From an uncultured Arcobacteraceae bacterium (GTDB lineage Bacteria > Campylobacterota > Campylobacteria > Campylobacterales > Arcobacteraceae), in contig CAXHZO010000005.1 of the NCBI GenBank assembly GCA_964022095.1, forward strand, positions 52,870 to 116,869: DNA of 64,000 nt, read 5' to 3'. A program made the translations under genes and the position numbers. Below the pieces are notes generated by a model. That model was given only the letters and a program-made list of their open reading frames with translations, was not told the origin of the DNA and made no database searches. Below, in pieces: positions 19,471 through 47,862 of the stretch. Within the stretch, counting starts at the first letter, position 1. Each line of letters starts with the position of its first letter.

Positions 19471-19494
19471 AATGAAGCAATAGCTTCATTTTAT
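19467..19494. terminator. bidirectional hairpin between the pheA remnant and leuB
   Basis: ATAAAATGAAGC-aata-GCTTCATTTTAT. Confidence 0.7.
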
Positions 19495-20558
19495 TTGTTG
19501 ATATACTCAACTATAATATCTCCCATTTGAGAAGTACTTAAAACTTCTTTTGCATCAAAAGATGATAAATCTTTAGTTCTATAGCCATCTTTTAGTACAT
19601 TTTTAATAGCTTCTTGTATTATATTTGAAGATTCTTCTTCATTTAGTGAATATTTAAGCATCATTGCAGCACTCTCAATTGTAGCTATTGGATTGGCTAT
19701 TCCAAGACCTGCAATATCAGGAGCTGAACCATGAATAGGTTCATAAACAGCTGTTTTATTTCCAGTTGAAGCACTAGGAAGAAGACCAATTGAACCTACA
19801 ACCATTGAAGCTGTATCACTTAAAATATCTCCAAAAATATTTCCTGTAACTATTACATCAAATTGTTTTGGGTTTCGCACTAATTGCATAGCTGCATTAT
19901 CAACATACATATGAGAAAGTTCAACTTCAGGATACTCTTTTGATAACTCAATCATAGTTGACCTCCAAAGTTGAGATACCTCTAAAACATTTGATTTATC
20001 AACAGAGCATAATCTCTTATCTCTTTTCATGGCTAGTTCAAAAGCAGTTTTTCCGATTCTTTGGATTTCTTCTTTTGTATAAACCATAGTATTAAAAGCT
20101 TTTTGTCCATCATTTTGCCTTGGTTCACCAAAATATATACCACCAATTAACTCTCTTATAACCATAATATCACAGCCTTTTATGATCTCAGGCTTTAGTG
20201 TTGAGGCATTTGTAAGTTCATCATAAACAATGGCAGGTCGTAAGTTTGCAAATACTCCTAACTCTTCTCTAAACTTTAAAAGCCCAGATTCAGGTCTTAG
20301 ATGTCTAGGTAAGTTATCCCATTTCTCACCACCAATAGCACCAAATAAACAAGCATGAGATTTTAAAACCCCATCAACTGTCTCTTTTGGAAGAGGGTGA
20401 CCTATTTTATCAATGGCTACTCCACCCATTAGATACTCTTTATATTCTAAATTGAAGCCACACTTTTTACTAATGGCATCTAATACTTTCACAGCTTCAT
20501 TTATAATTTCAACGCCAATTCCATCACCTTTGATTAATGATATATTATAATTTTTCAC
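19491..20558 (-). CDS. leuB: 3-isopropylmalate dehydrogenase
   Basis: [14 protein letters not shown] and [12 protein letters not shown] motifs. Confidence 0.92.
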
Positions 20559-20569
20559 ATATTCTCCTT

Positions 20570-21364
20570 TTATATTGCACTTTGAACCACACCCGCATCA
20601 GCTCTTAAAACTGCACCATTTGTAGCACTTGATATTGGACTTGCTGTATAAACAATCATATTTGATACCTCATCTACTTCTGTAAATCTTTTAAGTAGTG
20701 ATGTTGGTCGTATATTTTTAAAGAACTCTTCTTGCATTTGCTCAAAAGTGAAGTTCATTTGTTTTGCATAATCATATAAAAAAGTAGTAACACCCTCTGA
20801 TTTTGTAGGTCCTATGATGATAGAGTTTGAAGTTACATTGGTGCCAGCTGTAAGCTCAGCTATTCCTCTAGCGATTGATAATTGTGCAGTTTTACTCATA
20901 CCATAGTGAATCATCTCTTTTGGTATTTGATACGCTGATTCACTTGAAATAAAGATAATTCTTCCCCAATTTTGCTTTAGCATAGAAGGTAAGTAAGATT
21001 GAGATAGTCTTACTCCACTCATTACATTTGTATTAAACATACTAAGCCAATCTTCTTCCTCTAAACTTGTAAACTCTTTTGTCTCAAAAATTCCAAGGTT
21101 ATTGATTAGAATATCTACTTTTGATAGTTGTTTTATTAATTTATCGCAGCCTTCTTTACTTGAAAGGTCAGCAACTATTCCTTCAACTTTTGCATTTTTG
21201 TTATAAGATTTTATTTTTTTGATAGATTCTTGAACATTTTGTTCATCTCGACCATTTATATATACATAAGCACCCTCATCACATAATTTTTTAGCTGTTG
21301 CAAAACCAACGCCTAAAGTTGAACCTGTAACAAGAGCAGTTTTATTTTGTAGTTTTAAATCCAT
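20570..21364 (-). CDS. short-chain dehydrogenase/reductase
   Basis: [12 protein letters not shown] and YGMSK (YxxxK) motifs. Confidence 0.88.
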
Positions 21365-21392: not shown

Positions 21393-21425
21393 ATCTTAGT
21401 AGAATTTAATCGTATTATTATCGCA
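21393..21425 (-). promoter_or_regulatory. TGCGAT tandem box plus -10 element, promoter of SDR-leuB
   Basis: Minus strand reads TGCGAT-AATAA-TACGAT-N10-TAAGAT. Confidence 0.7.
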
Positions 21426-21431
21426 GTTTAT

Positions 21432-22190
21432 TTAAAACAGTTCTATTTTATATCCTGAGTTATTTTGATTTACTATTAAGTCTTTATGTATTTTACTTCT
21501 AAGTCTAAATAAAACAGACCTAAAAGCAGCATATCCAGCTGGTTCATCTTGCCAAATTGCATACTCCATTTGTTCTTGGGATACAAATTGCCCAGCACTT
21601 CTACAAAGTAAATCAATAATCTTTTTCTCTTTAGAAGTTAGTTTTATAGGTTCATCTCCATAATATAAAACTTCTACTTCTTTATCATAAAGATAACCAT
21701 ATTTAAGTTGTATTGTTCTATGATTTTGTTCTTTATTTAAAGATAATTGATGCTCTAAAGTTTTGTTTATATTTTCAACAGCATCTAGTTTTTTAATTTT
21801 TTCATTATCTTCTTTTGCTTTACTAAGAGCCACTTCAATAGCAGCATGTAAGCTTTGTTTTTTATATGGTTTGATTATATATCCATATGCTAAAGTTTGA
21901 GAAGCTTCTTTTATAGTTTTTATTTCTGAATTTGCAGTTAGAAAAACCACAGGTACCTCAGGAATTGAGTTTTTTAACTCTTTTGCAAGCTCAATTCCAG
22001 TAGTTGGTCCTTTTAGGTAAATATCCATCAAAATTAAGTCAGGTTTAGCACCTTTTTCTAATAAAGCTATAGTTTTACATCTATTTGGAGCAACACCACA
22101 AACTTTATATCCTAATTCATGTAGTGTTTCTTTTAGATTTAGTGCAATTATTGATTCATCTTCAACAATTAAAATTTCAATTTTGCTCAT
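21432..22190 (-). CDS. response regulator, REC plus OmpR/PhoB-type winged helix
   Basis: IVEDE...PDLILMDI...IKPY receiver; C-terminal LTSKEKKII...IW...LFRLRSKI...GYK wHTH pattern. Confidence 0.85.
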   Translation of the reverse strand: MSKIEILIVEDESIIALNLKETLHELGYKVCGVAPNRCKTIALLEKGAKPDLILMDIYLKGPTTGIELAKELKNSIPEVPVVFLTANSEIKTIKEASQTLAYGYIIKPYKKQSLHAAIEVALSKAKEDNEKIKKLDAVENINKTLEHQLSLNKEQNHRTIQLKYGYLYDKEVEVLYYGDEPIKLTSKEKKIIDLLCRSAGQFVSQEQMEYAIWQDEPAGYAAFRSVLFRLRSKIHKDLIVNQNNSGYKIELF

Positions 22191-22192
22191 TA

Positions 22193-23488
22193 TTATTCTC
22201 CCTCATCCTTAGAAAAAATTATATTACACTCTAAACCATTATTATTCTTAAACTCTATAGTTCCATCTAGTTGATCTTCAATAATTGAGTGAATAAGTTG
22301 CATTCCAATTGAATCACTTTTATATAGCGAGTCAATGTCATCTAATCCATCTCCATTATCACGAATTTTTACGTGGATCTGTTCATCTACTTTTTTCATA
22401 TGAATACATAATAAATTATCTCTATCTTCTTTAAATGCATATTTTAAAGCATTTACACAAAGTTCATGTAGAACCATTCCTATTTGTATACATCTATTTG
22501 TAGAAAAACTCAAATTATCAATGTGTACATCTACATTTAATGTTGTGTTTTGTGAAATATATAACTCTTTTATATCATCAACAAGTCTTTTTATATAATT
22601 TTTAAGATTTATATATGCTAGGTTTTCACCTAAATATAAAAACTCATGAACTAAAGCCATAGTATGAATTCTACTTCTACTTTGTTGTAAGATATAAATC
22701 ATATCTTTATCTTTTGTTCGTCGCTCTTGCATATTTAGTAGTGATGATATTATTTCCATATTGTTTTTTACTCTATGATGAATCTCTTTTAGTAATATGT
22801 CTTTTTCTTCAACTGACTTTTGTAATTCTTGATTCATTTTAGTGATTTTTGTTCTGTATTCTTGTCTTTGTGTCATATCTCTTGAAAAAGCACAAATATA
22901 TTCATTTCCATTATGTGTAAAACCATGACCTGAAACTTCCACAGGAAAAATTGTTCCATCCTTTCTAATTTGTGTAGTTTCTAATCTCCAATTTTTATGA
23001 TGGTAGATATTGTACATACACTCTTTTGCAGTCTCCCTATCAAAATTTGGGTCCATATCTTCTAAATACATATGATTTAAAAACTCATCTTTACTTCTTC
23101 CTATCATCTTACAAGCAGCTTCATTTACATAAATGAATTTTGCATCTAATGTAAACCAGTATATAGCATCAATAGAGTTGTTCAATGCAAACTCATAAGG
23201 AACAAGCCTTTCTTTATCTTTATCTTTTAACTCTTTGTATGAACCCTCAATTCTTGAAACAACTTTTTGCATATGATTTAACATGATAAATAAAATTATT
23301 CCAGTTACTATTAAAAATATAATTCCAAAAGTGAAAGGCCCTTCTTGGCTTAGTGAATGATACTTTGAAAACTCACTTACAAGTCTATCAATAAACAAAA
23401 TACCAACAGCTCCTATTAGTATATATGTTAATGAAAACTTTGTTGGTATGGATTTATTATTTAAAATATAGTTCTTAACTCTTCCCAT
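22193..23488 (-). CDS. membrane PAS-domain sensor histidine kinase, HisKA_2 type
   Basis: Two TM helices, PAS/PAC (RKDGTIFPVEV), EIHHRVKNN H-box, ELCVNALKYAF N-box, DNGDG; probable ATG at 23488. Confidence 0.88.
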   Translation of the reverse strand: MGRVKNYILNNKSIPTKFSLTYILIGAVGILFIDRLVSEFSKYHSLSQEGPFTFGIIFLIVTGIILFIMLNHMQKVVSRIEGSYKELKDKDKERLVPYEFALNNSIDAIYWFTLDAKFIYVNEAACKMIGRSKDEFLNHMYLEDMDPNFDRETAKECMYNIYHHKNWRLETTQIRKDGTIFPVEVSGHGFTHNGNEYICAFSRDMTQRQEYRTKITKMNQELQKSVEEKDILLKEIHHRVKNNMEIISSLLNMQERRTKDKDMIYILQQSRSRIHTMALVHEFLYLGENLAYINLKNYIKRLVDDIKELYISQNTTLNVDVHIDNLSFSTNRCIQIGMVLHELCVNALKYAFKEDRDNLLCIHMKKVDEQIHVKIRDNGDGLDDIDSLYKSDSIGMQLIHSIIEDQLDGTIEFKNNNGLECNIIFSKDEGE

Positions 23489-23549
23489 TTTACTGCTCTT
23501 ATTATAGATTTGAAAAATTATATCATAAATAAAAATATTCACTAATAAC

Positions 23550-23582
23550 TGCGATAATTTTGCGATTTTTTTCCATTAAGAT
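23550..23582 (+). promoter_or_regulatory. TGCGAT tandem box plus -10 element, promoter of dmpK-P
   Basis: TGCGAT-AATTT-TGCGAT-N10-TAAGAT. Confidence 0.78.
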
Positions 23583-23624: not shown

Positions 23625-23873
23625 ATGGCTAATGAATCACCGTTTGAAAGAAAATATGTACATATTACTGATGTTAAATCAAACGATTTAGTTGAGTTTG
23701 ATTTCTCTATAGGTGATCCATGTATGTATGTTGAACTTGCATTGCCGAAAAAGCAATTTGATGAGTTTTGTAAAAGAAATGCAGTTAAGCATTTAACAAG
23801 AGATCAAGAAATTGATGTGGAAAACGACAAGCATAAGTGGCAGTATGGTGTTGTTGGAACACTAAGTAAATAA
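23625..23873 (+). CDS. dmpK: phenol hydroxylase assembly subunit P0
   Basis: VEFDFSIGDPCMYVELALP...FDEFC; ATG at 23625 after AAGGTAGG. Confidence 0.9.
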   Translation: MANESPFERKYVHITDVKSNDLVEFDFSIGDPCMYVELALPKKQFDEFCKRNAVKHLTRDQEIDVENDKHKWQYGVVGTLSK

Positions 23874-23886
23874 AGGAGTTGAAAAT

Positions 23887-24882
23887 ATGTCTTTAGATAT
23901 AAAAAGTATAGATATTAAGCCAAAAAGAGAAACTTTTGGACACGTGGAAAGAAGAATTGGTGAAGGTAAGATGGCTTCAAGATATGAAGAGGCAACATTT
24001 GATATTCAGCCAGTTGCAAACTTTCATTATAGACCTTATGCAAATCCAGAGTTTGAGTTATATGATCAAAATAAAACTAGCATTAAAATGGAAGACTGGT
24101 ATAAGTTTTTAGACCCAAGACAATACCACTATGCTTCATATGTAACAGCAAGAGCAAAACAACAAGAAGTTGCAGAACAAAACTTTGTTTTTGTAGAAAA
24201 AAGAAATATGTTAGATGTAATGCCAGGAGATATAAAACAAGAAATCTTGAATTATGTTTTACCACTTAGACACTATGAGTGGGGAGCAAATATGAATAAC
24301 CTTCAATTATGTTCAGAAGGATATGGTGCAGCTATTACAAATGCTTATATGTTCCATGCAGAAGATAGATTAGGTAATGCTCAATATCTTACAAGAATTG
24401 GATTATTACTTAGTGAAAATGAACCTGCTGTTTTAGATAATGCAAAAGATAAATGGTTAAATGATGAAGCATGGCAGCCACTTAGAAAAGCAATGGAAGA
24501 TAGCTTTGTTTTACAAGATTGGTTTGAGCTTCATATAGCGCAAAATGTGATTTTCGATGGTTTTATTCATCCTTTAGTATTTGATAAGTACGAGCAAGAA
24601 CTAAACCAAAGAGGTGGAACTGCTCAAACTATGATGACAGAGTTTATCACATCTTGGAATGATGAATCTGCTAGATGGATTGATATGACAGTTAAAGTAG
24701 CAGCTTTAGAACGTGATGAAAATAAAGAGTTATTAAATCAATGGTGTAAAAAGTATATTGATATTGCAAGTAATGCAGCCCTAGCAATTGCTAAAAATAT
24801 AGTTAATAATCCAGAAGAAACAGTTAATAACATACAAGAGCAATTAGTGGCAAGATTAAATAAAAATGGTTTAAACCTATAG
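23887..24882 (+). CDS. dmpL: phenol hydroxylase beta subunit P1
   Basis: ASRYEEATFDIQP-NFHYRP, DPRQYHY and EWGANMNN motifs. Confidence 0.93.
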   Translation: MSLDIKSIDIKPKRETFGHVERRIGEGKMASRYEEATFDIQPVANFHYRPYANPEFELYDQNKTSIKMEDWYKFLDPRQYHYASYVTARAKQQEVAEQNFVFVEKRNMLDVMPGDIKQEILNYVLPLRHYEWGANMNNLQLCSEGYGAAITNAYMFHAEDRLGNAQYLTRIGLLLSENEPAVLDNAKDKWLNDEAWQPLRKAMEDSFVLQDWFELHIAQNVIFDGFIHPLVFDKYEQELNQRGGTAQTMMTEFITSWNDESARWIDMTVKVAALERDENKELLNQWCKKYIDIASNAALAIAKNIVNNPEETVNNIQEQLVARLNKNGLNL

Positions 24883-24890
24883 GAGAAAGA

Positions 24891-25160
24891 ATGTCAAAGG
24901 TATTTTTAGCACTTCAAGCAGTAGATGAAACAAGAGCTATTATTGAAGCTATACAAGAAGATAATGAAAATGTTGAGGTTGAACCACAGCCTGCCATGGT
25001 AAAAATCTCAGCTGAGAAAAAAATGGTAATAAATGCTCAAACTGTATCTGACAAATTAGGTAGAGATTGGGATCCACAAGAGTTACAGTTAGTTTTAATT
25101 TCACTAGCTGGAAATGTTGATGAAGATTATGACCACTTTACAATTTATTGGGAAAATTAG
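24891..25160 (+). CDS. dmpM: phenol hydroxylase regulatory protein P2 (MmoB/DmpM)
   Basis: 89 aa with IIEAI...PAMVKI...LISLAGNVDE. Confidence 0.92.
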   Translation: MSKVFLALQAVDETRAIIEAIQEDNENVEVEPQPAMVKISAEKKMVINAQTVSDKLGRDWDPQELQLVLISLAGNVDEDYDHFTIYWEN

Positions 25161-25171
25161 GAGAAAATATT

Positions 25172-26692
25172 ATGACTATGAGTACACAAAAAAGAAAAAA
25201 ACGTCTAAATATGAAAGACAAATATAAGTATATGACAAGACTTGGTTGGGAAACTACATATCAAGATATGGATGATGTTTTCCCTGAAGATAAATTTGAG
25301 GGTATAAAAATTCATGATTGGGAAGCTTGGGAAGATCCATTTAGAATGACAATGGATGCTTATTGGAAATACCAAGGTGAAAAAGATAAGAAACTATATG
25401 CAATTATTGATGCTTTTGCTCAAAATAATGGACAAAAAAATATTTCAGATGCAAGATATGTATCCGCATTAAAACTGTTTTTAACAGGTGTTTCACCTTT
25501 AGAATATCAAGCACATAGAGGTTTTGCAAATATTGCAAGAGCTTTTAGAGGTGATGGTCCAAGAGTTGCATGTCAAATGCAAGCTATTGATGAGTTAAGA
25601 CATGTTCAAACACAAATTCATACTTTAAGCCATTATAACAAATACTTTAATGGTTTTTCAGAGTGGGCACATTGGCATGATAATGTATGGTACTTATCTG
25701 TTCCTAAATCATTCTTTGATGATGCAAGAGCAGCAGGTCCTTTTGAGTTTATTATTGCTATTGGATTCTCATTTGAGTATGTATTAACTAATCTATTATT
25801 TGTACCGTTTATGAGTGGTGCAGCTTATAATGGAGATATGGCAACAGTTACATTTGGATTCTCAGCTCAAAGTGATGAGGCAAGACATATGACTTTAGGT
25901 TTACAAGCTATCAAGTTCTTATTAGAGCAAGACCCTGCAAATGTTCCTATTGTTCAAAAGTGGATTGATAAGTGGACTTGGAGAGGTTATAAAGTTTTAG
26001 GACTAGTATCTGCAATGATGGATTATATGTTACCTGATTCACCACAGTCTTGGAAAGAAGCTTGGGAATTATATTTTGAGCAAAATACAGTTGCACTATT
26101 TAAAGATTTAGAAAGATATGGAATTACAGTTCCAGATTGTGCAGCAACAATAAAAGCTGAAAAAGAGCATATTTCTCATCAAGTTTGGATGACACTATAT
26201 ACTCATAATGCAGCAGCACCTTTCCATACGTGGATTCCAGATGAGAAAAAAATGGATTGGTTAAGCGAAAAGTATCCTGAAACTTTCGATAAATATTACA
26301 GACCAGTTTATGAACACTGGAATAAGTTAGAAAAAGAAGGTACGAGATACTACTCTGAAATGCTTCCTCAGTTATGTCAAACTTGTCAGTTACCAATGTT
26401 AGCAACAGAAGTTGAAAAAGGTGAACCAACTCAAATTGCACATAGACATACTATGTACAATAATGAGAGATTCCATTTCTGTTCAGATCATTGTCAAGAT
26501 ATTTTTGAAAATGAACCTGAAAAGTATATTCAATCTTGGTTACCAGTTCATCAAATCTTCCAAGGAAACTGTGGAGGTGCTACACTTCCAGAAGTACTTA
26601 AATGGTATAAGGTTGAATTTGGACAAGATAATCTTGATTATGTAGGTTCTCAGGATCAAAAAATGTGGAAAGAATGGAAGGGAGAAGCATAA
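25172..26692 (+). CDS. dmpN: phenol hydroxylase alpha (di-iron) subunit P3 with YHS domain
   Basis: Two DExRH motifs (IDELRH, SDEARH), WEDPFR, CQTCQ and FCSDHC; ATG at 25172 after AGGAG. Confidence 0.96.
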   Translation: MTMSTQKRKKRLNMKDKYKYMTRLGWETTYQDMDDVFPEDKFEGIKIHDWEAWEDPFRMTMDAYWKYQGEKDKKLYAIIDAFAQNNGQKNISDARYVSALKLFLTGVSPLEYQAHRGFANIARAFRGDGPRVACQMQAIDELRHVQTQIHTLSHYNKYFNGFSEWAHWHDNVWYLSVPKSFFDDARAAGPFEFIIAIGFSFEYVLTNLLFVPFMSGAAYNGDMATVTFGFSAQSDEARHMTLGLQAIKFLLEQDPANVPIVQKWIDKWTWRGYKVLGLVSAMMDYMLPDSPQSWKEAWELYFEQNTVALFKDLERYGITVPDCAATIKAEKEHISHQVWMTLYTHNAAAPFHTWIPDEKKMDWLSEKYPETFDKYYRPVYEHWNKLEKEGTRYYSEMLPQLCQTCQLPMLATEVEKGEPTQIAHRHTMYNNERFHFCSDHCQDIFENEPEKYIQSWLPVHQIFQGNCGGATLPEVLKWYKVEFGQDNLDYVGSQDQKMWKEWKGEA

Positions 26693-27054
26693 TGGCAATT
26701 GTAAGTAAAGGTGAATATCCAGTAATTATGATGGATAGTGTAGATAAGTTTCATGGTAACCAATTAGTATATGTAGGTTGGGATAAACATAAGTTAATCA
26801 ATTCAGCGATGGCTTTTCCTTTACCACCACAAATGCCTTTTAAGGCATTAGTGCATGAAGTAATGCCAGGTTGTTATAAAGATCATCCAGATTTTGAAAA
26901 AGTTGTATGGGATGATTCTGTTATTTGGAGATTAAACGGTGAAGAGTTTACTCCTGATTTTGAAAAATCTCTTGAAGATAATGGAATTGATCATAAGTCA
27001 TTAGTTAGATTTGAAACACCAAATCTAACAGGAATTAACGGAGTAGGAATGTGA
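26692..27054 (+). CDS. dmpO: phenol hydroxylase gamma subunit P4
   Basis: YVGWDKH...HPDF...GIDHKSLVRFETP; ATG overlaps the dmpN stop. Confidence 0.9.
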   Translation: MAIVSKGEYPVIMMDSVDKFHGNQLVYVGWDKHKLINSAMAFPLPPQMPFKALVHEVMPGCYKDHPDFEKVVWDDSVIWRLNGEEFTPDFEKSLEDNGIDHKSLVRFETPNLTGINGVGM

Positions 27055-28109
27055 GTTATCAAGTAGAAATAGAACCAACAGGAGATGTAGTAGAAGTTCA
27101 AGATGGTCAAACTATTCTTGATGCTGCATTAAGACAGGGGGTATATATTCCCCATGCGTGCTCTCATGGTTTATGTGGTACTTGTAAGGTAGAGATATTA
27201 GAAGGTGAAGTTGACTATGGTGCAGCTTCTCCTTTTGCCCTTATGGATATGGAAAAAGATGAGGGAAAATGTCTTGCTTGTACTGCTACACCAATGGAAG
27301 ATTGTGCTATAGAAGCTGATGTTGATGAAGATCCAGATGCTAAATCAATACCTGTAAAAGATTTTATGGGAACAGTTGTTGAGGTGAAGGATTTAACACC
27401 TAGAATAAAAGGTATTTTTATAGAATTAGATGAAGAGATTGAGTTTCAAGCAGGTCAATATGTACAATATCATGTACCAGGATTTGAAGAACCAAGAGCA
27501 TTTTCTTTATGTAACTCTTCAAATGATAAAAAAATTGTAGAGTTAAATATTTCTTTAGTTCCAGATGGAGAAGCAACTCCATGGATTCATAAAAATGTAA
27601 AAGTTGGTGCAAGAAGAAAAGTATCAGGACCTTATGGAAGATTTTTTGTAAGAGAATCTGCTCAAAAACCTATGATTTTCTTTGCAGGTGGTTCAGGTCT
27701 TTCAAGTCCAAAATCTATGATTTTAGAGCAGCTTGAAAATGGAAGTAAACAAGAAATAACACTTTTTCATGGTGCTAGAAATGAAGAAGAGTTATATTAT
27801 GCAGATTTATTTAGAGACTTAGAGCAAAAGCATGAGAACTTTACATATGTACCTGTTTTATCCGATGAAGATACTCCTTCTTGGGAAGGGAAAAAAGGTT
27901 TTGTAAATGATGCTGCAAAAGAAGTTTTTGAAAATGACTTCTCTGGAAAAAAAGCATATCTTTGTGGACCTCCACCTATGATAGATGCTTGTATTACAAC
28001 ATTAATGAGAGGAAGACTTTACGAAAAAGATATTTATACTGAAAAGTTCTTCTCAAAAGCTGACTTAAATGCTGAAAATCAGCGTTCCCCTTTATTTAAA
28101 TCAATTTAA
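27051..28109 (+). CDS. dmpP: phenol hydroxylase reductase P5 (2Fe-2S/FAD/NAD)
   Basis: CSHGLCGTC, RAFS, GPYG, AGGSG and YLCGPPPM motifs. Confidence 0.95.
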   Translation: MSYQVEIEPTGDVVEVQDGQTILDAALRQGVYIPHACSHGLCGTCKVEILEGEVDYGAASPFALMDMEKDEGKCLACTATPMEDCAIEADVDEDPDAKSIPVKDFMGTVVEVKDLTPRIKGIFIELDEEIEFQAGQYVQYHVPGFEEPRAFSLCNSSNDKKIVELNISLVPDGEATPWIHKNVKVGARRKVSGPYGRFFVRESAQKPMIFFAGGSGLSSPKSMILEQLENGSKQEITLFHGARNEEELYYADLFRDLEQKHENFTYVPVLSDEDTPSWEGKKGFVNDAAKEVFENDFSGKKAYLCGPPPMIDACITTLMRGRLYEKDIYTEKFFSKADLNAENQRSPLFKSI

Positions 28110-28129: not shown

Positions 28130-28162
28130 TGCGATTTTTCTGCGAAACTATTTCTGTAAAGT
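28130..28162 (+). promoter_or_regulatory. TGCGAT tandem box plus -10 element, promoter of the meta-pathway genes
   Basis: TGCGAT-TTTTC-TGCGAA-N10-TAAAGT. Confidence 0.72.
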
Positions 28163-28207: not shown

Positions 28208-28528
28208 TTGAAATATGAAATCTTCGTAAAAGATAAAGACAAAACTAAAACTTGTCTTGAATCTAAACATCTTATGGATGGTTTATATGTATATGATAAT
28301 CTAGTTCCAAAGGGTTGTCATAATGGTGCCTGTGGACTTTGTAAGGTTAAAGTTCATAGAGGAGACTACAAAAAATGCAAAATGAATAGAAAACACATCT
28401 CATGTGAAGAAGAGAGTGCAGATATTCTTTTAGCTTGTAAGACATTTCCTAGAAGTGATATGGAAATAGAATTTATACGTAGAGACTTATCTAAAGAAAA
28501 ATCCCAAGTTTATGTACTTGGTAATTAA
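28208..28528 (+). CDS. dmpQ: XylT/DmpQ-type plant-like ferredoxin
   Basis: GCHNGACGLCKV...MNRKHIS...LAC; directly before the C23O gene. Confidence 0.88.
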   Translation: MKYEIFVKDKDKTKTCLESKHLMDGLYVYDNLVPKGCHNGACGLCKVKVHRGDYKKCKMNRKHISCEEESADILLACKTFPRSDMEIEFIRRDLSKEKSQVYVLGN

Positions 28529-28545
28529 ATAATTAGGAGAAAGTA

Positions 28546-29493
28546 ATGAGCAGTATTATGAGATTAGGTCATGTTGATATTAATGTATTAGATATTAATG
28601 AATCAAGAGACTATTATGAAAATATTATGGGTATGGAAGTTACAAGAGAAGACTCTGATGGAACACTTTATTTAAAGTGCTGGGATGAATGGGATAAATA
28701 CAGTCTTATTTTAAGACCTAGTGAAGAAGCAACATATAATAAGGTTGCGTATAAAGTAGAAAAAGATTCTGATATAGATGATTTTAAAGAAAAAATCGAA
28801 AAATATGGAATAAAAACAGAGATTTTAGAAGCTGGAACTATTCCTGAATGTGGAAGGGTATTAAAGTTTATATCTCCAAGTGAGCATGAATTTAATTTAT
28901 ATGCTGAAAAAACATTTGTAGGTAAAAAAGTAGGTCACACTAATCCTGCACCTTGGCCAATTGATGGAAAAGGTATCAAAGCTCACTGGATTGATCATAT
29001 TTTATTAATGACTCAAGGTCCTGAAAAATTAATGGAAGCTACTAAGTTCTTTGAAGAAGTATTTGATATGAAATTAGCAGAGCAAGTTTGTGTAGGACCT
29101 GAGGGCTCAGTTCAGGCTGCAACATGGTTAAGTGCTGGAAACACTCCTCATGATTTAGCTTTTGTTGCTGGAGCAGAAACTGGTATGCATCATTTTGCAT
29201 TTTTCTTAGATGGTTGGAATGATATTTTAAGATCAGCAGATGTTATGGCTATGAATAATGTTAAGTTAGATGTTACTCCTCAAAGACATGGTATTACAAG
29301 AGGTGAGACTATTTATTTCTTTGACCCATCAGGACATAGACTTGAGACATTTGCAGGTCTAGGTTATGCAGTTTGTAAAGATATGCCAACAGTTACTTGG
29401 ACAGAAGATGAACTATGGAGAGGTATTTTCTATCATACAGGTCAAGAAAATGGTGCATTTACAACTGCATATACATTATCAGCTTATAAATAA
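28546..29493 (+). CDS. dmpB: catechol 2,3-dioxygenase
   Basis: RLGHV, WDEWDKYS, HHFAF and RHGITRGETIYFFDPSGHRLE motifs. Confidence 0.96.
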   Translation: MSSIMRLGHVDINVLDINESRDYYENIMGMEVTREDSDGTLYLKCWDEWDKYSLILRPSEEATYNKVAYKVEKDSDIDDFKEKIEKYGIKTEILEAGTIPECGRVLKFISPSEHEFNLYAEKTFVGKKVGHTNPAPWPIDGKGIKAHWIDHILLMTQGPEKLMEATKFFEEVFDMKLAEQVCVGPEGSVQAATWLSAGNTPHDLAFVAGAETGMHHFAFFLDGWNDILRSADVMAMNNVKLDVTPQRHGITRGETIYFFDPSGHRLETFAGLGYAVCKDMPTVTWTEDELWRGIFYHTGQENGAFTTAYTLSAYK

Positions 29494-29515
29494 AAGAAAA
29501 ATTTAGGAATTTAAA

Positions 29516-29944
29516 ATGTTGACAAAAACATCAAGAGATTTGACAAGTCAAACAGCTTTAAAGCTTTGTGAGTTATCAATTGAAAAGGCTAATGAATTAA
29601 ATATAAAAATAAATGTAAGTGTTACAGATTCAAAAGGGATTGAACTTGCATTTATAAGAATGGATGATTCTTTTATTCATTCAAGTCAAATAGCAAAAGA
29701 TAAGGCTTATACAAGTGCAAGTTTTGGTTTTAACTCAGATATATGGACTCAAGTTTTCAAAAGTGAACCTCATTTAGAACAAGGTTTTTCTAATAGAGAT
29801 AGATTAATACCTTTTGGTGGAGGGCTTACTATTTTTGAAAATGAAGAAAAAGTTGGAGCCATTGGTGTTTCAGGCGGAACTGAACAAGAAGATATTATTT
29901 GCGCGAAGTATGCAATAGAAAGGATAGGATTAAATAATGAATAA
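29516..29944 (+). CDS. GlcG/HbpS-family heme-binding protein (NahX-like accessory)
   Basis: RMDD...KAYTSASFG...FGGG...GAIGVSGG motifs. Confidence 0.85.
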   Translation: MLTKTSRDLTSQTALKLCELSIEKANELNIKINVSVTDSKGIELAFIRMDDSFIHSSQIAKDKAYTSASFGFNSDIWTQVFKSEPHLEQGFSNRDRLIPFGGGLTIFENEEKVGAIGVSGGTEQEDIICAKYAIERIGLNNE

Positions 29945-31394
29945 AGTACAACACTATATTAACGGACAATTTTTAGATTCATCTTGTGGGGAGTTTTTTG
30001 AGAATATCAACCCTATGAATGGTCAAGTATTATCTCAAGTAGCCCTAGGACGAGAAGATGAAGTGAATGCAGCAGTTGCAGCAGCTAAAGCAGCTCTTAC
30101 TGGTGAATGGGGTCAAATGAAATTAAATGACAGAATTGCAATGATGTATGAAATTGCTGAGGAAATTGATAGAAGATTTGATGATTTCTTAGAAGCTGAA
30201 TGTTTAGATACAGGTAAACCTTATTCTATTGCAAGACATATTGATATCCCAAGAGGTGCTGCAAATTTTAAAGTATTTGCAGACACTATGAAATCTGTTG
30301 CAGATGAAGCTTATAGAATGGATACACCTGATGGAAAAGTAGCTATGAATTATTCTATGAGAAAACCTAAGGGGGTTATTGGTGTAATTTCTCCATGGAA
30401 TTTACCATTACTTTTAATGACTTGGAAAGTTGGTCCTGCAATGGCTTGTGGAAATACAGTAGTTGTGAAACCATCACAAGTTACACCAACAACAACATCT
30501 TTACTTGGTGAAGTAATGTCAAAAGTTGGTGTTCCTTCTGGTGCATATAATGTAGTACAAGGAAAAGGTTCAATTACTGGAAATTTATTAACAGCTCATA
30601 AAGATGTAGATGCTTTAACTTTTACAGGTGAGACAAAAACAGGTGAGATGATTATGAAAGCTTGTTCTCATGGTGTTAGAGATGTATCCTTAGAGCTTGG
30701 TGGAAAAAACCCAGCTATTGTTTTTGCTGATTGTGATATGGATAAGGCAATTGCTGAGACTACAAGATCGTGTTTTGCTAACTCTGGTCAAGTTTGTTTA
30801 GGAACTGAAAGAGTTTATGTTCAAAGAGAAATTTTTGATGAATTTGTATCAAAACTAAAAGAGTCAGCTTTAAAACTAAAACTTGGAATTCATAATGATG
30901 AATCAGTTGATATGGGGCCAGTAGTTAGTGCTGCTCATAGAGATAAAGTATTAGAGTTTTATGACATAGCTAAAAAAGAGGGTGCAAATGTAATTTTAGG
31001 TGGAGGTGCTCCTAAAATGGAAGGTGATTTAGCAAATGGATTCTTTGTTGAACCTACTATTTGGACTGGTCTTCCTGAAGATGCAACAGTTGTAAAACAA
31101 GAAGTATTTGGACCTTGTTGTCATATTGCACCTTTTGATAGTGAAGAAGAAGTTATTAAAATGGCTAATGATACAGATTATGGACTAGCATCTACAATAT
31201 TTACAGAAAATTTAGATAAGGCTCATAGAGTAGCTTCACAAATTGACTCAGGAATTGTATGGATTAATTCATGGTTCTTAAGAGATTTAAGAACACCATT
31301 TGGTGGAATGAAAGGTTCTGGTATCGGAAGAGAGGGTGGTCACCACTCATTAGAGTTCTATACTGAACTTAAAAACGTATGTATAAAAATGTAA
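29937..31394 (+). CDS. dmpC: 2-hydroxymuconic semialdehyde dehydrogenase
   Basis: PWNLPLLL, LELGGKN, NSGQVCL and WFLRDLRTPFGG motifs. Confidence 0.95.
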   Translation: MNKVQHYINGQFLDSSCGEFFENINPMNGQVLSQVALGREDEVNAAVAAAKAALTGEWGQMKLNDRIAMMYEIAEEIDRRFDDFLEAECLDTGKPYSIARHIDIPRGAANFKVFADTMKSVADEAYRMDTPDGKVAMNYSMRKPKGVIGVISPWNLPLLLMTWKVGPAMACGNTVVVKPSQVTPTTTSLLGEVMSKVGVPSGAYNVVQGKGSITGNLLTAHKDVDALTFTGETKTGEMIMKACSHGVRDVSLELGGKNPAIVFADCDMDKAIAETTRSCFANSGQVCLGTERVYVQREIFDEFVSKLKESALKLKLGIHNDESVDMGPVVSAAHRDKVLEFYDIAKKEGANVILGGGAPKMEGDLANGFFVEPTIWTGLPEDATVVKQEVFGPCCHIAPFDSEEEVIKMANDTDYGLASTIFTENLDKAHRVASQIDSGIVWINSWFLRDLRTPFGGMKGSGIGREGGHHSLEFYTELKNVCIKM

Positions 31395-31403
31395 GGGTGT
31401 AAT

Positions 31404-32198
31404 ATGTCAATGACTCAAGAAAAAATTGAAAAGTATGGAAATGAATTGTATGAGGCTTTAAAAGGAAACTATACAATTGAGCCTATTTCAAATAGAGAAC
31501 CTGATTCTACAATTGAAGATGCTTATGCTATTCAACATCACTTTTTAAAAAGAAGAATGGAAGATGATGGAAGTAAAATTATTGGTAAAAAAATTGGTGT
31601 TACATCAAAGGTTGTTATGGACATGTTAGGTGTTCATCAACCTGATTTTGGTTACCTTTTATCAGATATGATTTACTCTGATGGTGATGTAATAAATGTA
31701 ACAAGTGGAATGATTCAGCCAAAAGCAGAGGGTGAAATAGCCTTTGTTTTAAAAGAAGATTTATGTGGACCAGGAGTTACAGCTGCTGATGTTATTAAAG
31801 CAACAAAATTTGTAATGCCTTGTTTTGAAATAGTTGATTCAAGAATCAAAGATTGGAAAATTAAAATCCAAGATACAGTTGCTGATAACGCTTCATGTGG
31901 ATATATGGTATTTGGAGGACAAAGTGTATCTCCTTTAGATGTTGATTTAACAACTTGTGGAATAACTTTAGAGAGAAATGGTGAGTTATTACATACAGGA
32001 GCAGGTGCAGCAGCTCTTGGTAGTCCTGTAAATGCAGTAGTTTGGCTTGCAAATAAACTTGGAGAGTTTGGTGTATCGCTAAAAGCAGGTGAGGTTATTT
32101 TATCAGGGGCTTTATGTGCAATGGTAGATATAAAACCAGGTGATAATATGACTGCAAGTATTGGTGGCGTTGGTTCTGCCTCAATCAGATTTGAATAA
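31404..32198 (+). CDS. dmpE: 2-oxopent-4-enoate hydratase
   Basis: GKKIGVTSK...QPDFG and WKIKIQDTVADNAS motifs. Confidence 0.92.
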   Translation: MSMTQEKIEKYGNELYEALKGNYTIEPISNREPDSTIEDAYAIQHHFLKRRMEDDGSKIIGKKIGVTSKVVMDMLGVHQPDFGYLLSDMIYSDGDVINVTSGMIQPKAEGEIAFVLKEDLCGPGVTAADVIKATKFVMPCFEIVDSRIKDWKIKIQDTVADNASCGYMVFGGQSVSPLDVDLTTCGITLERNGELLHTGAGAAALGSPVNAVVWLANKLGEFGVSLKAGEVILSGALCAMVDIKPGDNMTASIGGVGSASIRFE

Positions 32199-32210
32199 AA
32201 GGTAAATACA

Positions 32211-33095
32211 ATGGAAAAAATAAATTGTGCATTAATTGGGTCTGGAAATATTGGAACAGACCTAATGTATAAACTAAAAAGAAGTGAAATATTAAATCCT
32301 TTATGGATGGTTGGTATTGACCCTGAGTCTGATGGTTTATTAAGAGCTAAAGAAGATGGTATGAAAACAACAGCCGAAGGTGTTGATGGATTACTTCCTT
32401 TTATTAAAGAAGATGGTGTAAAGATTGCATTTGATGCAACATCAGCTTATGTTCATGGTGAAAATAATAAAAAGTTAGCGGAACTTGGAGTTCAAGTTAT
32501 TGATTTAACTCCTGCTGCAATAGGACCATTTTGTGTGCCATCAGTTAATATGGAAGAGCTACTTGCTCAAAATACTCAAAATGTAAATATGGTTACTTGT
32601 GGTGGGCAAGCTACTATTCCTATGATTGCCGCTGTATCAAAAGTTCAGGAAGTTGAATATGCAGAAATTGTAGCAACAGCAGCTTCTAAGTCAGCAGGTC
32701 CAGGAACTCGTGCTAATATTGATGAGTTTACTGAAACTACAAAACTTGGAATAGAGCAAGTAGGTGGTGCTAAAAAAGGTAAAGCAATTATTATTTTAAA
32801 TCCTGCAGAACCACCTTTAATGATGAGAGATACAATTCATTGTTTAACAAGTGAAAAACCTGATGAAGAAGCTATTACTAAATCAATCCATGAAATGGTT
32901 GAAACTATGCAAGAGTTTATTCCAGGGTATGTGTTAAAAAATGGACCAGTTTTTGATGGTAATAAAATCTCTATTTGGTTAGAAATTGAAGGTTTGGGGG
33001 ATTATTTGCCTAAGTATGCAGGTAACCTAGACATTATTACAGCAGCAGCAACAAATATTGCAGAACAAATGGCTAAAAAGATTAAAGGAGCATAA
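32211..33095 (+). CDS. dmpF: acylating acetaldehyde dehydrogenase
   Basis: [22 protein letters not shown] and YAGNLDI motifs. Confidence 0.95.
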
Positions 33096-33096
33096 G

Positions 33097-34125
33097 ATGG
33101 ATTTACAAGGTAAAAAAATAAAAATTCATGATATGTCTTTAAGAGATGGAATGCACTCAATTAGACATCAATTTTCACTTGAAGAGATGACAAATATGTC
33201 AACAGCAATGGATAAAGCAGGTGTTCCTTTTATTGAAGTTACTCATGGAGATGGACTTGGTGGTTCATCACTTAACTATGGATGGGGAAGACATACTGAT
33301 GAAGAGTGGTTAGATGCAGTAGTGCCAAATATGACACAAGCTAAAATCTCAGCTCTTTTACTTCCAGGAATCGGTATTGTAAAAGATTTAGAAAAAGCTG
33401 TTGATCATGGTATTTCTATGGTTAGAGTAGCAACTCATTGTACGGAAGCTGATTGTTCAGCCCAACATATAAAAGCTGCTAAATCAATGGGACTTGATAC
33501 AGTTGGATTTTTAATGATGGCTCATATGGTTGATGAAAAAAGATTAGTTGAGGAAGCTTCTAAAATGGTTTCTTATGGAGCTACTACTATTTATGCAACT
33601 GATTCAGCTGGCTACTTACTTCCTGATATGGTAAGTTCTAGAATTAAAGCATTAAAAGCAGAGTTTGGTGATGAAATTGAACTTGGTTTCCATGGGCACA
33701 ATAATTTATCAATGGGTGTTGCAAACTCTTTAGCTGCTATTGAAGCAGGTGCTACACGAATTGATGCTTCACTTGCAGGTTTTGGAGCAGGTTCTGGAAA
33801 CACTGCAACTGAAGTATTAGTTGCTGTTTGTAATAGAATGGGTGTTGATACAGGTGTTAATCTTGAAGCTATTGAAGATGCAGCTGAGGATATTGCACTT
33901 CCTATTATGGGTAAACCTACAAGAATCTCAAGGGATTCTATTACTTTAGGTTATGCAGGTGTTTATTCATCATTTTTACTATTTGCTAGACGAGCAGAAG
34001 AAAAGTATGGAATAGATGCAAGATCTTTACTTGTTGAATTAGGTAGAAGAGGAATGATTGGTGGTCAAGAGGATATGATTGATGATTGTGCTATGGAATT
34101 AGCTAAACAAAAAGGATTATTATAA
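33097..34125 (+). CDS. dmpG: 4-hydroxy-2-oxovalerate aldolase
   Basis: [21 protein letters not shown] and [13 protein letters not shown] at 33097 after AAGGAG. Confidence 0.95.
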
Positions 34126-34913
34126 TGGCATTAGATAAAGCAACAATAGAAAAACTTGCAAAGCATTGTGAAGATGCAGAATTGCAAGCTTATGAGATTA
34201 CAAAAATTACTGATGATTACCCAGAAATGACATATGAAGATGCATATGATATTCAATGGACTGCAAGGGCTGCTAAGGAAGCAAGAGGTCATAAAATAGT
34301 TGGTATGAAAATGGGGCTTACTTCACAGGCTAAAATGAAACAAATGGGAGTTCCAAATCCTTGTTATGGATATCTTGCTGATTACTTTGCATATGGTGAT
34401 GGGGCAGAAATACCATATGACGAATTAATTCATCCAAAAGTTGAAGCTGAAATTGCTTTTGTATTAAAAGATGATTTAAGTGGTCCGGGATGTCATATAG
34501 GTGATGTATTAGCTGCTACTGATTTTGTAATGCCTGCTGTTGAGATTATTGATTCAAGATATAAGGATTTTAAATTTGATTTAAAATCTGTAATTGCTGA
34601 TAACTCTTCATCTTCTAGATATGTAAGTGGTGGTATGGCAAAAAAAGCTAATGAAGTTGATTTAAAAACTTTAGGTGTCGTAATGGAAATAAATGGTGAA
34701 GTTGTACAACTTGGAGCAGGAGCTGCAGTTCTTGGTCATCCAGCAACTGCTATTGCAATGCTTGCAAATATGATGAGTGAACGAGGTGAGGTTTTAAAGG
34801 CTGGATCTTATATCTTAAGTGGAGCAATTACAGCTGCAACTACTGTTAATAAAGGTGATAATGTAACTGTTAAGTTTCAAGATTTAGGAACTTTATCATT
34901 TAAATTTGTATAG
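34125..34913 (+). CDS. dmpH: 4-oxalocrotonate decarboxylase
   Basis: KMGLTSQAKMKQMGV and FDLKSVIADNSSS motifs. Confidence 0.92.
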   Translation: MALDKATIEKLAKHCEDAELQAYEITKITDDYPEMTYEDAYDIQWTARAAKEARGHKIVGMKMGLTSQAKMKQMGVPNPCYGYLADYFAYGDGAEIPYDELIHPKVEAEIAFVLKDDLSGPGCHIGDVLAATDFVMPAVEIIDSRYKDFKFDLKSVIADNSSSSRYVSGGMAKKANEVDLKTLGVVMEINGEVVQLGAGAAVLGHPATAIAMLANMMSERGEVLKAGSYILSGAITAATTVNKGDNVTVKFQDLGTLSFKFV

Positions 34914-34918
34914 AAAAT

Positions 34919-35068
34919 AAGAGCAACTTATTGCTTTTAAAAAATGGGATATTTTAAGGACAACTTGTTGTCCCTTTAGGGTTTGCTTCTTTAAAGATGG
35001 CTTTGCCATCTTGTTAAAAGAAGTTAAATATGTAAGGTCCCTTAAAAAATGGGACATTTTTTAAGGAG
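34919..35068. repeat. cluster of short palindromes between dmpH and dmpI; the last stem overlaps the dmpI SD
   Basis: GGACAAC-tt-GTTGTCC; AAGATGGC-ttt-GCCATCTT; CCTTAAAAAATG-gga-CATTTTTTAAGG; TTAAAAAATGGGA occurs twice. Confidence 0.7.
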
Positions 35069-35074
35069 TATATT

Positions 35075-35266
35075 ATGCCAATAGCAACTATAAATATAAT
35101 CGAAGGCAGATCTGATGAGCAAAAAGAGAAGCTTATAGAAAAAGTAACTCAAGCAATTCACGAAGCTATAGATGCACCAAAACAAAATGTTAGAGTGATT
35201 TTAAATGAAATGCCAAAACAACATTTTGGAATAGGTGGAGAAAGTGTAAAAAAGATGGGGCGATAA
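35075..35266 (+). CDS. dmpI: 4-oxalocrotonate tautomerase
   Basis: N-terminal Pro (MPIA), EGRSDEQK and FGIGG; 63 aa. Confidence 0.95.
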   Translation: MPIATINIIEGRSDEQKEKLIEKVTQAIHEAIDAPKQNVRVILNEMPKQHFGIGGESVKKMGR

Positions 35267-35267
35267 A

Positions 35268-36275
35268 GTGTTAAAATTAAGTGTATTAGACCAATCTCCA
35301 ATTCATGATGGAAAAGAAGCAAAGCAAGGCTTATTTGATACTATTGAATTAGCAAAATCTTGTGAAGACTTAGGTTATTATAGATATTTATTAGCAGAAC
35401 ATCATGATACACCTGGCTATGCTTCTTGTGCCCCTGAGATTATGGTTAGTGCAGTTGCTTCAAATGCTTCAAAAATTAGAGTTGGTAGTGGTGGAGTTAT
35501 GCTAAATCACTATAGCTCTTTTAAAGTAGCAGAGACTTTTAATACACTTAATGCTTTATACGATAATAGGATTGATTTAGGTGTAGGAAGAGCTAGTGGC
35601 GGAAGTTTTTTAGCTACTAGAGCTTTGCATTCAAATCAAAGTGATTATTCAAAAAAAGTTTATGAAACAATAAATTATTTAGATAAAACAGTTCCTTTAA
35701 ATTCTTCATTTAGTGGATTGACTTTATCCCCAGTTCAAGAAAATAGTACTCCTGTGTATTTACTAGGTTCTAGTAATTCAAGTTCTTCTTTAGCAGGAGT
35801 TTTAGGTGCAGGTTTTATCTTAGCACTATTTATAGGAACACATGAAAGAAATTCTTCAATAATACAAGAGTATAAAAAAACATTTAATAAAAGTCATAAT
35901 TTTAAAAAGCCAAAAGCTAGTATTGCAGTTGCTTGTATTGTTGCAAAGGATAAAGAAGAAGCAAGATATATAGCAAGTACACATACTTATTGGAAGTTAC
36001 AAGCTTTCAGACAGCCTACAAGGGATGATTTACAAAGCCCACAAGCAGTTCAAGAACTAATAAAAGATTTAAGCCTTGAAGATAGACAATATTATGAAGA
36101 AACAATGAATACCATGATATTGGGTAATGCAAAAGAGTGTAAAGAAGAAATAGAGAAATTAGCTTTAGAATATGAAGTTGATGAGGTAATTATTGTGAAT
36201 GTGACTTATTCTTTTGAGCATAGAAAAAGATCATATGAACTTTTAGCAAAAGAGTTTGATTTAAATAAGGAGTAA
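35268..36275 (+). CDS. luciferase-like (LLM) flavin-dependent oxidoreductase
   Basis: LSVLDQSP, AEHH, RVGSGGVML and RIDLGVGRA motifs. Confidence 0.88.
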   Translation: MLKLSVLDQSPIHDGKEAKQGLFDTIELAKSCEDLGYYRYLLAEHHDTPGYASCAPEIMVSAVASNASKIRVGSGGVMLNHYSSFKVAETFNTLNALYDNRIDLGVGRASGGSFLATRALHSNQSDYSKKVYETINYLDKTVPLNSSFSGLTLSPVQENSTPVYLLGSSNSSSSLAGVLGAGFILALFIGTHERNSSIIQEYKKTFNKSHNFKKPKASIAVACIVAKDKEEARYIASTHTYWKLQAFRQPTRDDLQSPQAVQELIKDLSLEDRQYYEETMNTMILGNAKECKEEIEKLALEYEVDEVIIVNVTYSFEHRKRSYELLAKEFDLNKE

Positions 36276-36277
36276 AA

Positions 36278-37096: not shown

Positions 37097-37104
37097 GAGT
37101 AGAT

Positions 37105-38050: not shown

Positions 38051-38083
38051 TGCGATTAATCTGCGATAAGTTTTTATTATTAT
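38051..38083 (+). promoter_or_regulatory. TGCGAT tandem box plus -10 element before an ORF-less segment
   Basis: TGCGAT-TAATC-TGCGAT-N10-TATTAT. Confidence 0.7.
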
Positions 38084-38089
38084 TACCTT

Positions 38090-38278: not shown

Positions 38279-38290
38279 ACTTATAAAAAG

Positions 38291-38323
38291 TGCGATAATT
38301 TTGCGATTTAATTTAATTAAAAT
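38291..38323 (+). promoter_or_regulatory. TGCGAT tandem box plus -10 element, promoter of the porin gene
   Basis: TGCGAT-AATTT-TGCGAT-N10-TAAAAT; the 17-mer is identical to the dmpK site. Confidence 0.78.
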
Positions 38324-39565: not shown

Positions 39566-39594
39566 TAATTTAGTATAGTATAAAAGCTGTTTTT

Positions 39595-39626
39595 AAGGGT
39601 TCAAGTATATACTTGAACCCTTTTTT
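39595..39626 (+). terminator. intrinsic terminator after the porin
   Basis: AAGGGTTCAAGTATATACTTGAACCCTT palindrome followed by a T-run. Confidence 0.85.
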
Positions 39627-39655
39627 AATTTAAATTTTTTTCAAAAGAAGTTATT

Positions 39656-40543: not shown

Positions 40544-40545
40544 TC

Positions 40546-47778: not shown

Positions 47779-47796
47779 TAAATATTAAAGATCATT

Positions 47797-47828: not shown

Positions 47829-47862
47829 ATACCCGCTTTAAGCTTAATATAAATTCTTAAAT

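Follow-up and report, generated by a model that had tools for sequence, protein, structure and literature searches.

Operons for multicomponent phenol hydroxylases are the textbook case of control by sigma54 and DmpR. The activators of this DmpR/XylR family are one-component AAA+ proteins that combine an XylR_N/V4R sensor with dependence on sigma54. DmpR from Pseudomonas sp. CF600-type operons and MphR from Acinetobacter, which control the dmp and mph operons, are encoded divergently from dmpK (PMC7285258; this and the other PMC sources on described systems are cited from portions of their text). Here we describe a locus at which the same place, with the same predicted targets, is taken by a two-component system, namely a PAS-HisKA_2 sensor kinase and a winged-helix response regulator encoded divergently from dmpKLMNOP in a stretch of 64,000 nucleotides (the window) from an uncultured Arcobacteraceae bacterium (GCA_964022095.1, contig CAXHZO010000005.1, positions 52,870 to 116,869). 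This kinase-regulator pair is likely a dedicated, sigma70-dependent activator of an aromatic-catabolism regulon that would replace the sigma54/DmpR route by way of a predicted operator. The best reading of the sequence is an apparently undescribed family of sigma70 activators for phenolic catabolism, with putative DNA binding, activation and ligand recognition.

The best analogue of how such a pair would work is provided by TodS/TodT and TmoS/TmoT from Pseudomonas. TodT is a regulator of the NarL/FixJ type, whereas the present regulator has a winged helix. In both of these systems a PAS kinase controls an aromatic oxygenase operon, as is proposed here, and the enzyme under TmoST control, toluene-4-monooxygenase, is a di-iron relative of phenol hydroxylase (PMC4861429). 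These systems set a precedent for two-component control of aromatic oxygenases, though in another kinase architecture: TodS lacks transmembrane (TM) helices and is arranged as PAS-HK-REC-PAS-HK (PMC4861429), whereas the present kinase has two TM helices, one PAS domain and one HisKA_2 domain. PhoB and PhoP share with the present regulator a receiver (REC) joined to a Trans_reg_C domain and an 11-bp direct repeat over the -35 position; PhoB sites are comprised of two 11-bp tandem repeats (PMC4447250), and PhoP boxes overlap the -35 element and displace sigma region 4 (PMC11825685). The present system differs from both in its half-site (GCGA rather than TGTCA), its longer linker, its HisKA_2 kinase and its receiver, which is nearest to those that partner HisKA_2 kinases. 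An H-box kinase of the HisKA_2 type with a related receiver is also found in PdtaS/PdtaR, EutW/EutV and PhyK/PhyR, and several homologues of the present proteins carry the JGI label 'PdtaS' or 'PdtaR'. The output of PdtaR and EutV is an ANTAR RNA-binding domain and that of PhyR-type proteins an anti-anti-sigma (sigma-like) domain, whereas the present regulator ends in a DNA-binding winged helix and its kinase is anchored in the membrane.

Sigma54 control of dmpK was rejected, given what the searches did not find. In the source genome (2.57 Mb, 99.99% complete) the Sigma54_DBD model for rpoN returned 0 matches, while the same search finds the gene in 4 of 14 control genomes, and no GAFTGA-type motif occurs in its 6,503 open frames. 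XylR_N matched neither there nor in any of the 184 Arcobacteraceae genomes of our family survey, which includes the source genome (positive control, 3 of 3 proteobacterial genomes), and a DmpR-type protein query reached a best E of 1.2, against E <1e-170 in 4 of 4 control loci; Sigma54_activat gave 8 weak matches, the best with an E of 4e-7. The 136-nt intergenic region before dmpK contains no -24/-12 element (GG-N10-GC) on either strand, and the regulator has no AAA+ domain, the Pfam scan finding REC and Trans_reg_C only. The first-pass annotation had reported both the missing sigma54 element and, for the window, the missing DmpR-type AAA+ activator; the former stands, and the latter now extends to the whole genome. 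Its remark that the pair sits where DmpR normally does is borne out by a GAFTGA-type activator in the fetched flank of 53 of 70 dmpN loci from outside the Arcobacteraceae. The other 17 loci lack such a protein; 12 of them, together with 2 others, were scanned upstream (35 frames), which revealed a GntR gene at 4 loci and no kinase-regulator pair of the present type in these frames, the activators of these loci possibly lying elsewhere.

The two proteins are what the first-pass annotation took them for, a 2-TM PAS-HisKA_2 kinase with a very short loop and a receiver resembling those of HisKA_2 partners on an OmpR-like winged helix. The regulator bears Response_reg (residues 6-119) and Trans_reg_C (180-248), both above the Pfam cut-off, a combination that places it in the OmpR/PhoB family, and its phospho-acceptor site is intact (E10, D11, D56, T85 and K107). 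The solved structures nearest to the receiver are 3cg0, 1s8n ('putative antiterminator'), 6wsh and PhyR entries; 1s8n we take to be PdtaR and 6wsh EutV, both partners of HisKA_2 kinases. Orthology to a named OmpR/PhoB member was not found, all NCBIfam equivalog models scoring far below cut-off (PhoB, 71 against 296). Membership of the PhyR/PhyK family fails likewise, with PhyR matching the receiver only (87 against 240) and PhyK scoring 123 against 750, and no ANTAR domain was matched in the regulator, its C-terminal domain being Trans_reg_C in the Pfam scan. Its predicted recognition helix is near-invariant in 48 close regulators. The kinase opens with two hydrophobic segments flanking a loop of ~15 aa, followed by PAS (98-207), HisKA_2 (235-310) and HATPase domains in the Pfam scan; PF07568 scores 89 bits against a cut-off of 22, and H238, N346, D377 and G379 are present. 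Its likely start is the ATG at 23488, giving 431 aa, the length also of the database protein, rather than the GTG at 23542; the feature end of 23582 adopted in the first-pass annotation therefore takes in the dmpK promoter.

What goes beyond that annotation is a candidate operator and the regulon that it probably defines. The operator, GCGA-N7-GCGA, is followed by a -10 hexamer of the form TA-N3-T that starts 11 nt after the second GCGA. A scan of the source genome with TRCGA-N6-TRCGA found 5 sites, each in an intergenic region of the phenol cluster (Table 1). The GCGA-N7-GCGA box precedes dmpK in 34 of 34 relatives, these being the fetched loci of 34 of the 35 other dmpN genomes (fragmented G511 was left out), and they include two in which the pair lies elsewhere in the genome; TA-N3-T stands at the fixed 11-nt offset in all 34. 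Among 26 distinct sites from more distant loci, the hexamer occurs at the exact offset in 26 and, at offsets of -4 to +4 from it, in 0-1. A matrix trained on these 26 sites, with the four closest relatives left out, returned only 5 sites above 8 bits in the 2.57-Mb source genome, again all in the phenol cluster. Across the 184 genomes, box and -10 together gave 150 matches in the 36 that carry dmpN, at least 2 in each, and in 1.30 Mb from the 70 dmp loci outside the family they gave 0. Sorted by the next frame on the same strand, 136 sites in 60 fetched stretches precede dmpK (35), dmpQ (28), a short-chain dehydrogenase (SDR) gene (27), a porin gene (16) and other or no frames (30), the others including malate-dehydrogenase-like, chemoreceptor and pheA-like genes and a toluene/o-xylene monooxygenase operon. 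TauE genes are also box-linked in other genomes. The promoter of the kinase-regulator operon has no box on the strand of that operon, which is probably constitutive for this reason.

The geometry of these promoters bears on how the regulator would act. The box occupies the -35 position, and the expected -35 of dmpK reads ATAATT, with no likeness to TTGACA; a generic promoter scan was uninformative (37 sites against 45.8 expected). TA-N3-T is a signature of sigma70, established knowledge that speaks against an extracytoplasmic function (ECF) sigma factor at these promoters. An ECF sigma, or a regulator that represses at the box and is relieved or modified by phosphorylation, is a very improbable account: the lack of a -35 element counts against it, and the box-to--10 distance, fixed at 34 of 34 sites, fits contact with polymerase better than a steric block. 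This account has in its favour that a site over -35 could occlude polymerase, that PhoP is able to repress (PMC11825685) and that seven ECF sigma pairs are known from A. butzleri (PMC2147049).

Activation by the pair through the box is consistent with how the genes are distributed. In the family survey dmpN occurs in 36 of 184 genomes (35 of 183 besides the source genome), and the kinase, at E<=1e-90, in exactly these 36 and in 0 of 148 others, so that the co-occurrence which the first-pass annotation proposed to check holds without exception in this family. Three further genomes hold only a kinase paralogue of 34-38% identity, and close regulator orthologues are confined to the 36 and to two truncated remnants. 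In 32 of the 34 fetched relatives the pair and dmpK are immediate divergent neighbours, and DmpN identities within the family fall into two groups, 83-99% and ~70%. rpoN is present in 67 of the 184 genomes; 23 of the 36 dmpN genomes lack it, and loss of sigma54 is not the whole reason for the presence of the pair, because the other 13 have rpoN. In a sample of 400 further genomes of the phylum dmpN was not found, which says little about its absence there, since 35 of 183 family genomes carry it; 44 of the 400, without dmpN, have the regulator architecture at 31-49% identity. With the kinase N-terminus as query, 50%-cluster representatives yielded mostly multi-PAS proteins. Within the family, G438 (L136) has internal stops in dmpN, kinase and rpoN, from decay or sequencing error, and a second di-iron monooxygenase operon of the toluene/o-xylene monooxygenase type is present in G405 (L152:5527-9002, with its own box) and G450 (L158:6204-9599).

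A further link between box and regulator comes from paralogues and other families. Three distant Arcobacteraceae paralogues with an altered recognition helix, each divergent from a p-cresol methylhydroxylase-like operon, are accompanied by GAGA-N7-GAGA with a -10 at the same spacing (3 of 3). Outside the family, 8 of the 44 regulator loci of the phylum sample were fetched. The three closest, from three genomes of two other Campylobacterota families, have a kinase of the same 2-TM/PAS/HisKA_2 build and lie beside p-cresol methylhydroxylase-type genes (the flavoprotein of G254 being assigned by the likeness of its start to that of G394), and the GCGA box and -10 are present in all three genomes, G075 (L185), G394 (L186) and G254 (L187), with 2 sites in one and 1 in each of the others; the five loci with regulators of 34-36% identity have 0 box sites. 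G075 also carries the protocatechuate 4,5-cleavage pathway. Operons of the p-cresol methylhydroxylase/vanillyl-alcohol-oxidase type were seen in several Campylobacterota families (L185, L186, L187, L156, L157 and L168). In family f7, 33 of the 34 genomes sampled encode a more distant regulator that shares this architecture and stands as an orphan; the three loci examined (L188-L190) show neither the PAS kinase nor the box. That the pair is a passenger on the cluster, and an unlinked winged-helix regulator reads the box, is hardly credible and the least probable account considered: many other receiver and winged-helix genes exist in the source genome, block inheritance accounts for the co-occurrence, and G408 and G430 keep boxes beside truncated regulators, but the box goes with the pair in other families and at other operons, its sequence changes where the recognition helix changes, it is rare in genomes without the pair, and the two loci with truncated regulators have no dmpN and appear to be decaying. 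These remnants (L153 in G408, L154 in G430) retain boxes, an SDR gene and a truncated regulator, and the searches found neither the kinase nor dmp genes in them.

The signal would be received by the PAS domain, which models confidently as a PAS fold (pLDDT 92). Among dmpK-side orthologues, mean identity to the window kinase falls from 68% in PAS to 48-55% in the TM helices and 23% in the loop, and the better conservation of PAS favours it over the loop as the sensing part. Beside dmpQ the fetched loci have 13 second copies of the pair, usually with a malate-dehydrogenase-like gene, and 2 copies lie next to a porin-benK-benE-benDCBA operon; all 15 form one clade in a quick kinase tree (SH-aLRT 99), and their features therefore count as one event. 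In G485 and G478 (L161, L163) a third copy of the pair is divergent from porin-benK-benE and benzoate dioxygenase genes, with the box present and the -10 one base closer. The 13 dmpQ-side and 32 dmpK-side kinases (that of G438, with its internal stop, was left out of the alignment) do not overlap at four PAS positions, Y110/H, A125/T, I129/D-E-S and Q173/H. In the dmpQ-side copies further differences run along the DHp helix and are mirrored in the receiver; the DNA-reading helix is kept. A125 and Q173 align with F46 and N94 of YtvA (numbering counted from the alignment), which we take to be pocket positions. By a match that rests on register and not on residue-level alignment, Y110, A125 and Q173 would correspond to the TodS pocket residues G48, A63 and I114 (PMC4861429).

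A different signal acting through the same pair and box, be it oxygen or redox state, damage that phenolics do to the membrane or a metabolite further down the pathway, perceived by PAS or the membrane segment, is unlikely but has more to recommend it. The pathway requires O2, the PAS matches include the oxygen/redox sensors FixL, NifL and MmoS, FAD binding by PAS is conceivable, an HbpS-like gene lies within the operon, C126 and C199 are invariant in 49 close kinase homologues, and the kinase is membrane-anchored, unlike TodS (PMC4861429). Against such a signal, the LOV motif NCRFLQ is absent in the alignment with YtvA, no conserved His is found in the long PAS helix, and copies beside different aromatic operons differ at the predicted pocket positions; moreover, in strain CAB of Arcobacter sp. 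catechol instead of acetate, both under perchlorate, changed the expression of homologous genes (PMC3656443). A phenolic signal leads to a wider picture that we put forward tentatively and hold to be somewhat less probable than not, in which Campylobacterota possess their own family of phenolic-sensing PAS/HisKA_2 kinases and winged-helix regulators that took over acquired phenol, toluene, benzoate and p-cresol pathways. Duplicates would keep the operator and re-tune the PAS pocket (Y110H, A125T, I129D/E, Q173H) and the kinase-regulator interface, one copy perhaps answering to phenol and the other to catechol as two insulated inputs to the same regulon, and one helix residue would pick GCGA or GAGA.

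Under sigma70-dependent activation by the pair, the kinase would be tethered by its two TM helices and would sense a phenolic, putatively phenol or cresol, in the cytoplasmic PAS pocket. H238 would autophosphorylate and pass the phosphate to D56, as two-component chemistry and the intact residues suggest. The phosphorylated regulator would bind as a tandem dimer to the GCGA half-sites 11 bp apart, a site delineated by cross-genome footprinting and a mode of binding expected from the OmpR/PhoB family. With the box observed over the -35 of promoters that have a -10 and no -35, the dimer would recruit sigma70 polymerase as PhoB and PhoP do, presumably at five promoters, those of dmpK, dmpQ, the SDR gene, the porin and a candidate small RNA. 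The GC content is 33-34% in the dmp genes, 27.5% in the pair and ~29% in the flanks, and DmpN is 63-73% identical to proteobacterial homologues; this contrast and these identities fit a resident regulator recruited to acquired dmp genes. The regulator was probably recruited locally, because its architecture is widespread in Campylobacterota, to a dmp cluster that would have come from Proteobacteria without DmpR, a direction of transfer that is likewise presumed. Rewiring of the pathway to sigma70 control, as the first-pass annotation suggested, is supported by the lack of hits for rpoN and DmpR in the genome, the 36/36 against 0/148 distribution, the box-to--10 spacing in 34/34 and the pair and box beside other aromatic operons.

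Several points weigh against this account, which is wholly computational. The 36 of 36 co-occurrence is not a set of independent events, as these are kin genomes that inherited cluster, pair and boxes as a block, and two of the 34 relatives have the pair away from dmpK, in both cases after type I secretion genes. The background of box and -10 is not zero, with 41 matches in 30 of the 148 genomes without dmpN, and the reversed-pattern control, which gave 15 matches against the 150, leaves the -10 without a meaningful position. The source genome encodes ~30 other receiver-containing proteins, the next best at 31% identity, which are possible readers of the box. A GAGA box was expected in G394 and G254, and this prediction failed, both having GCGA. 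Ser (once Thr) at regulator position 225, which we take to match a base-contacting residue of the PhoB helix, goes with GCGA and Gly/Asn with GAGA, a one-residue rule that fits all cases and was drawn up post hoc. The attempt to name a ligand by fold search was also unsuccessful: the nearest structures to PAS, 3olo (Z 17.1) and 3bwl (Z 16.7), are structural-genomics domains with no ligand in their titles, and the toluene-binding PAS1 of TodS is not specially close (rank 45; Z 11.3, rmsd 3.3, 113 aligned, 12% identity).

Table 1. Predicted control elements, the kinase-regulator pair and box-linked genes in the window (positions are those of the window)
Feature	Position	Strand	Remarks
Predicted operator before dmpK	23550..23566	+	TGCGAT-N5-TGCGAT; GCGA half-sites 11 bp apart, ~-38 and ~-27
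Predicted dmpK -10 hexamer	23577..23582	+	TAAGAT
Predicted operator and -10 before SDR gene	21393..21425	-	operator 21425-21409; -10 TAAGAT, 21398-21393
Predicted operator and -10 before dmpQ/catechol meta-cleavage operon	28130..28162	+	-10 TAAAGT
Predicted operator and -10 before ~200-nt structured non-coding stretch	38051..38083	+	-10 TATTAT
Predicted operator and -10 before porin gene	38291..38323	+	-10 TAAAAT
Extended -10 upstream of kinase-regulator operon	23517..23525	-	TG-N-TATAAT; similar element visible in relatives, uncounted
Response regulator gene	21432..22190	-	252 aa; PdtaR/EutV/PhyR-like receiver (D56), helical linker, OmpR/PhoB-type winged helix
Sensor kinase gene	22193..23488	-	431 aa; 2 TM and ~15-aa loop, coiled coil, cytoplasmic PAS 98-207, HisKA_2 (H238), HATPase
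dmpKLMNOP, multicomponent phenol hydroxylase	23625..28109	+	predicted target operon 1; subunit names by gene order and homology
Catechol meta-cleavage genes	28208..38043	+	predicted target operon 2; genes given in the text
SDR gene	20570..21364	-	box-linked, in 19491..21364 block
LeuB-like gene	19491..20558	-	in box-linked SDR block; name from translation alone
OprD-like porin, EamA transporter and 426-aa membrane protein	38399..41826	+	predicted uptake/export operon

The pair stands beside a phenol hydroxylase operon, in which dmpK (start at 23625; PF06099 in the Pfam scan) and five more subunits follow in the order KLMNOP (PF06099, PF02332). Operon 2 contains dmpQ, dmpB for catechol 2,3-dioxygenase, an HbpS-like gene and dmpC, E, F, G, H and I, the names of dmpC-H being taken from translations and the established gene order, along with genes for a luciferase-like monooxygenase, a dmpD-like hydrolase and a PanE-like protein. 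The stretch between two boxes at 38088-38285 (+), just after a predicted -10, is structured and non-coding and ends in a hairpin; it folds with a z-score of -3.6, G442, G445 and G547 retain a long stem, and Rfam gave no family match in window positions 15000-45000. This may be a small RNA or a leader controlled by the same regulator. At roughly the corresponding place in the cluster, other genomes have a box followed by a conserved hydrophobic small open reading frame of ~27 aa and then a hairpin (L159:16922, +; L160:329, -; L170:2291, +; L174:11068, -), a candidate unannotated small protein. A methyl-accepting chemotaxis gene with its own box lies beside the regulator at L141:16769-18652, L146:16767-18650 and L153:12758-14641, where chemotaxis to aromatics is possible. 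The SDR and LeuB-like genes (19491-21364, -) and the PanE-like genes (17909-18859, +; 37105-38043, +) travel with the phenol cluster. Nearby, a prephenate dehydratase gene (18940-19470, +) is in two pieces with an internal stop and an apparent deletion, where close relatives have a single open frame of ~288 aa, and positions 10415-11491 hold an intact pheA-like gene. A tandem pair of near-identical thioredoxin-like genes is found at 47461-48219 (+), as also in L176, and a second two-component pair at 49857-52678 (+), comprised of a 722-aa kinase and a 218-aa regulator beside an anion-transporter-like gene, is unrelated to the phenol cluster.

A described cluster close to this one is that of Arcobacter sp. 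CAB, in which the locus-tag order of the catechol meta-cleavage pathway matches the window; this strain oxidises catechol by meta-cleavage, with the genes induced on catechol as compared with acetate, and the available portion of the account names no regulator, operator or phenol hydroxylase (PMC3656443). A. butzleri has been described as without rpoN and rich in two-component systems (PMC2147049), and Campylobacterota are listed among carriers of ring-cleavage genes (PMC9535955). A description of the pair or box was not found in a literature search from which subscription papers were largely outside the scope, nor does one occur in the portions available of PMC8784404, PMC6249378 and PMC10432169, and the terms 'aromatic', 'phenol' and 'catechol' do not occur in the main text of two family-wide genome papers (PMC11265409, PMC10336517; term search). 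The same literature search found no report of growth on phenol or of its oxidation, and turned up only the use of catechol by strain CAB.

About one in five Arcobacteraceae species genomes (36 of 184) carry this pathway with a different candidate control, 23 of them without detectable sigma54. Now that operator, -10 position and candidate pocket residues have been specified, regulator, site and ligand are directly testable in cultured strains. If the PAS domain binds phenols, it would constitute a new sigma70-compatible sensor scaffold for phenol, cresol or catechol, useful for biosensors. The locus also suggests that the Arcobacteraceae of wastewater and coasts have been overlooked as inducible degraders of phenolics.

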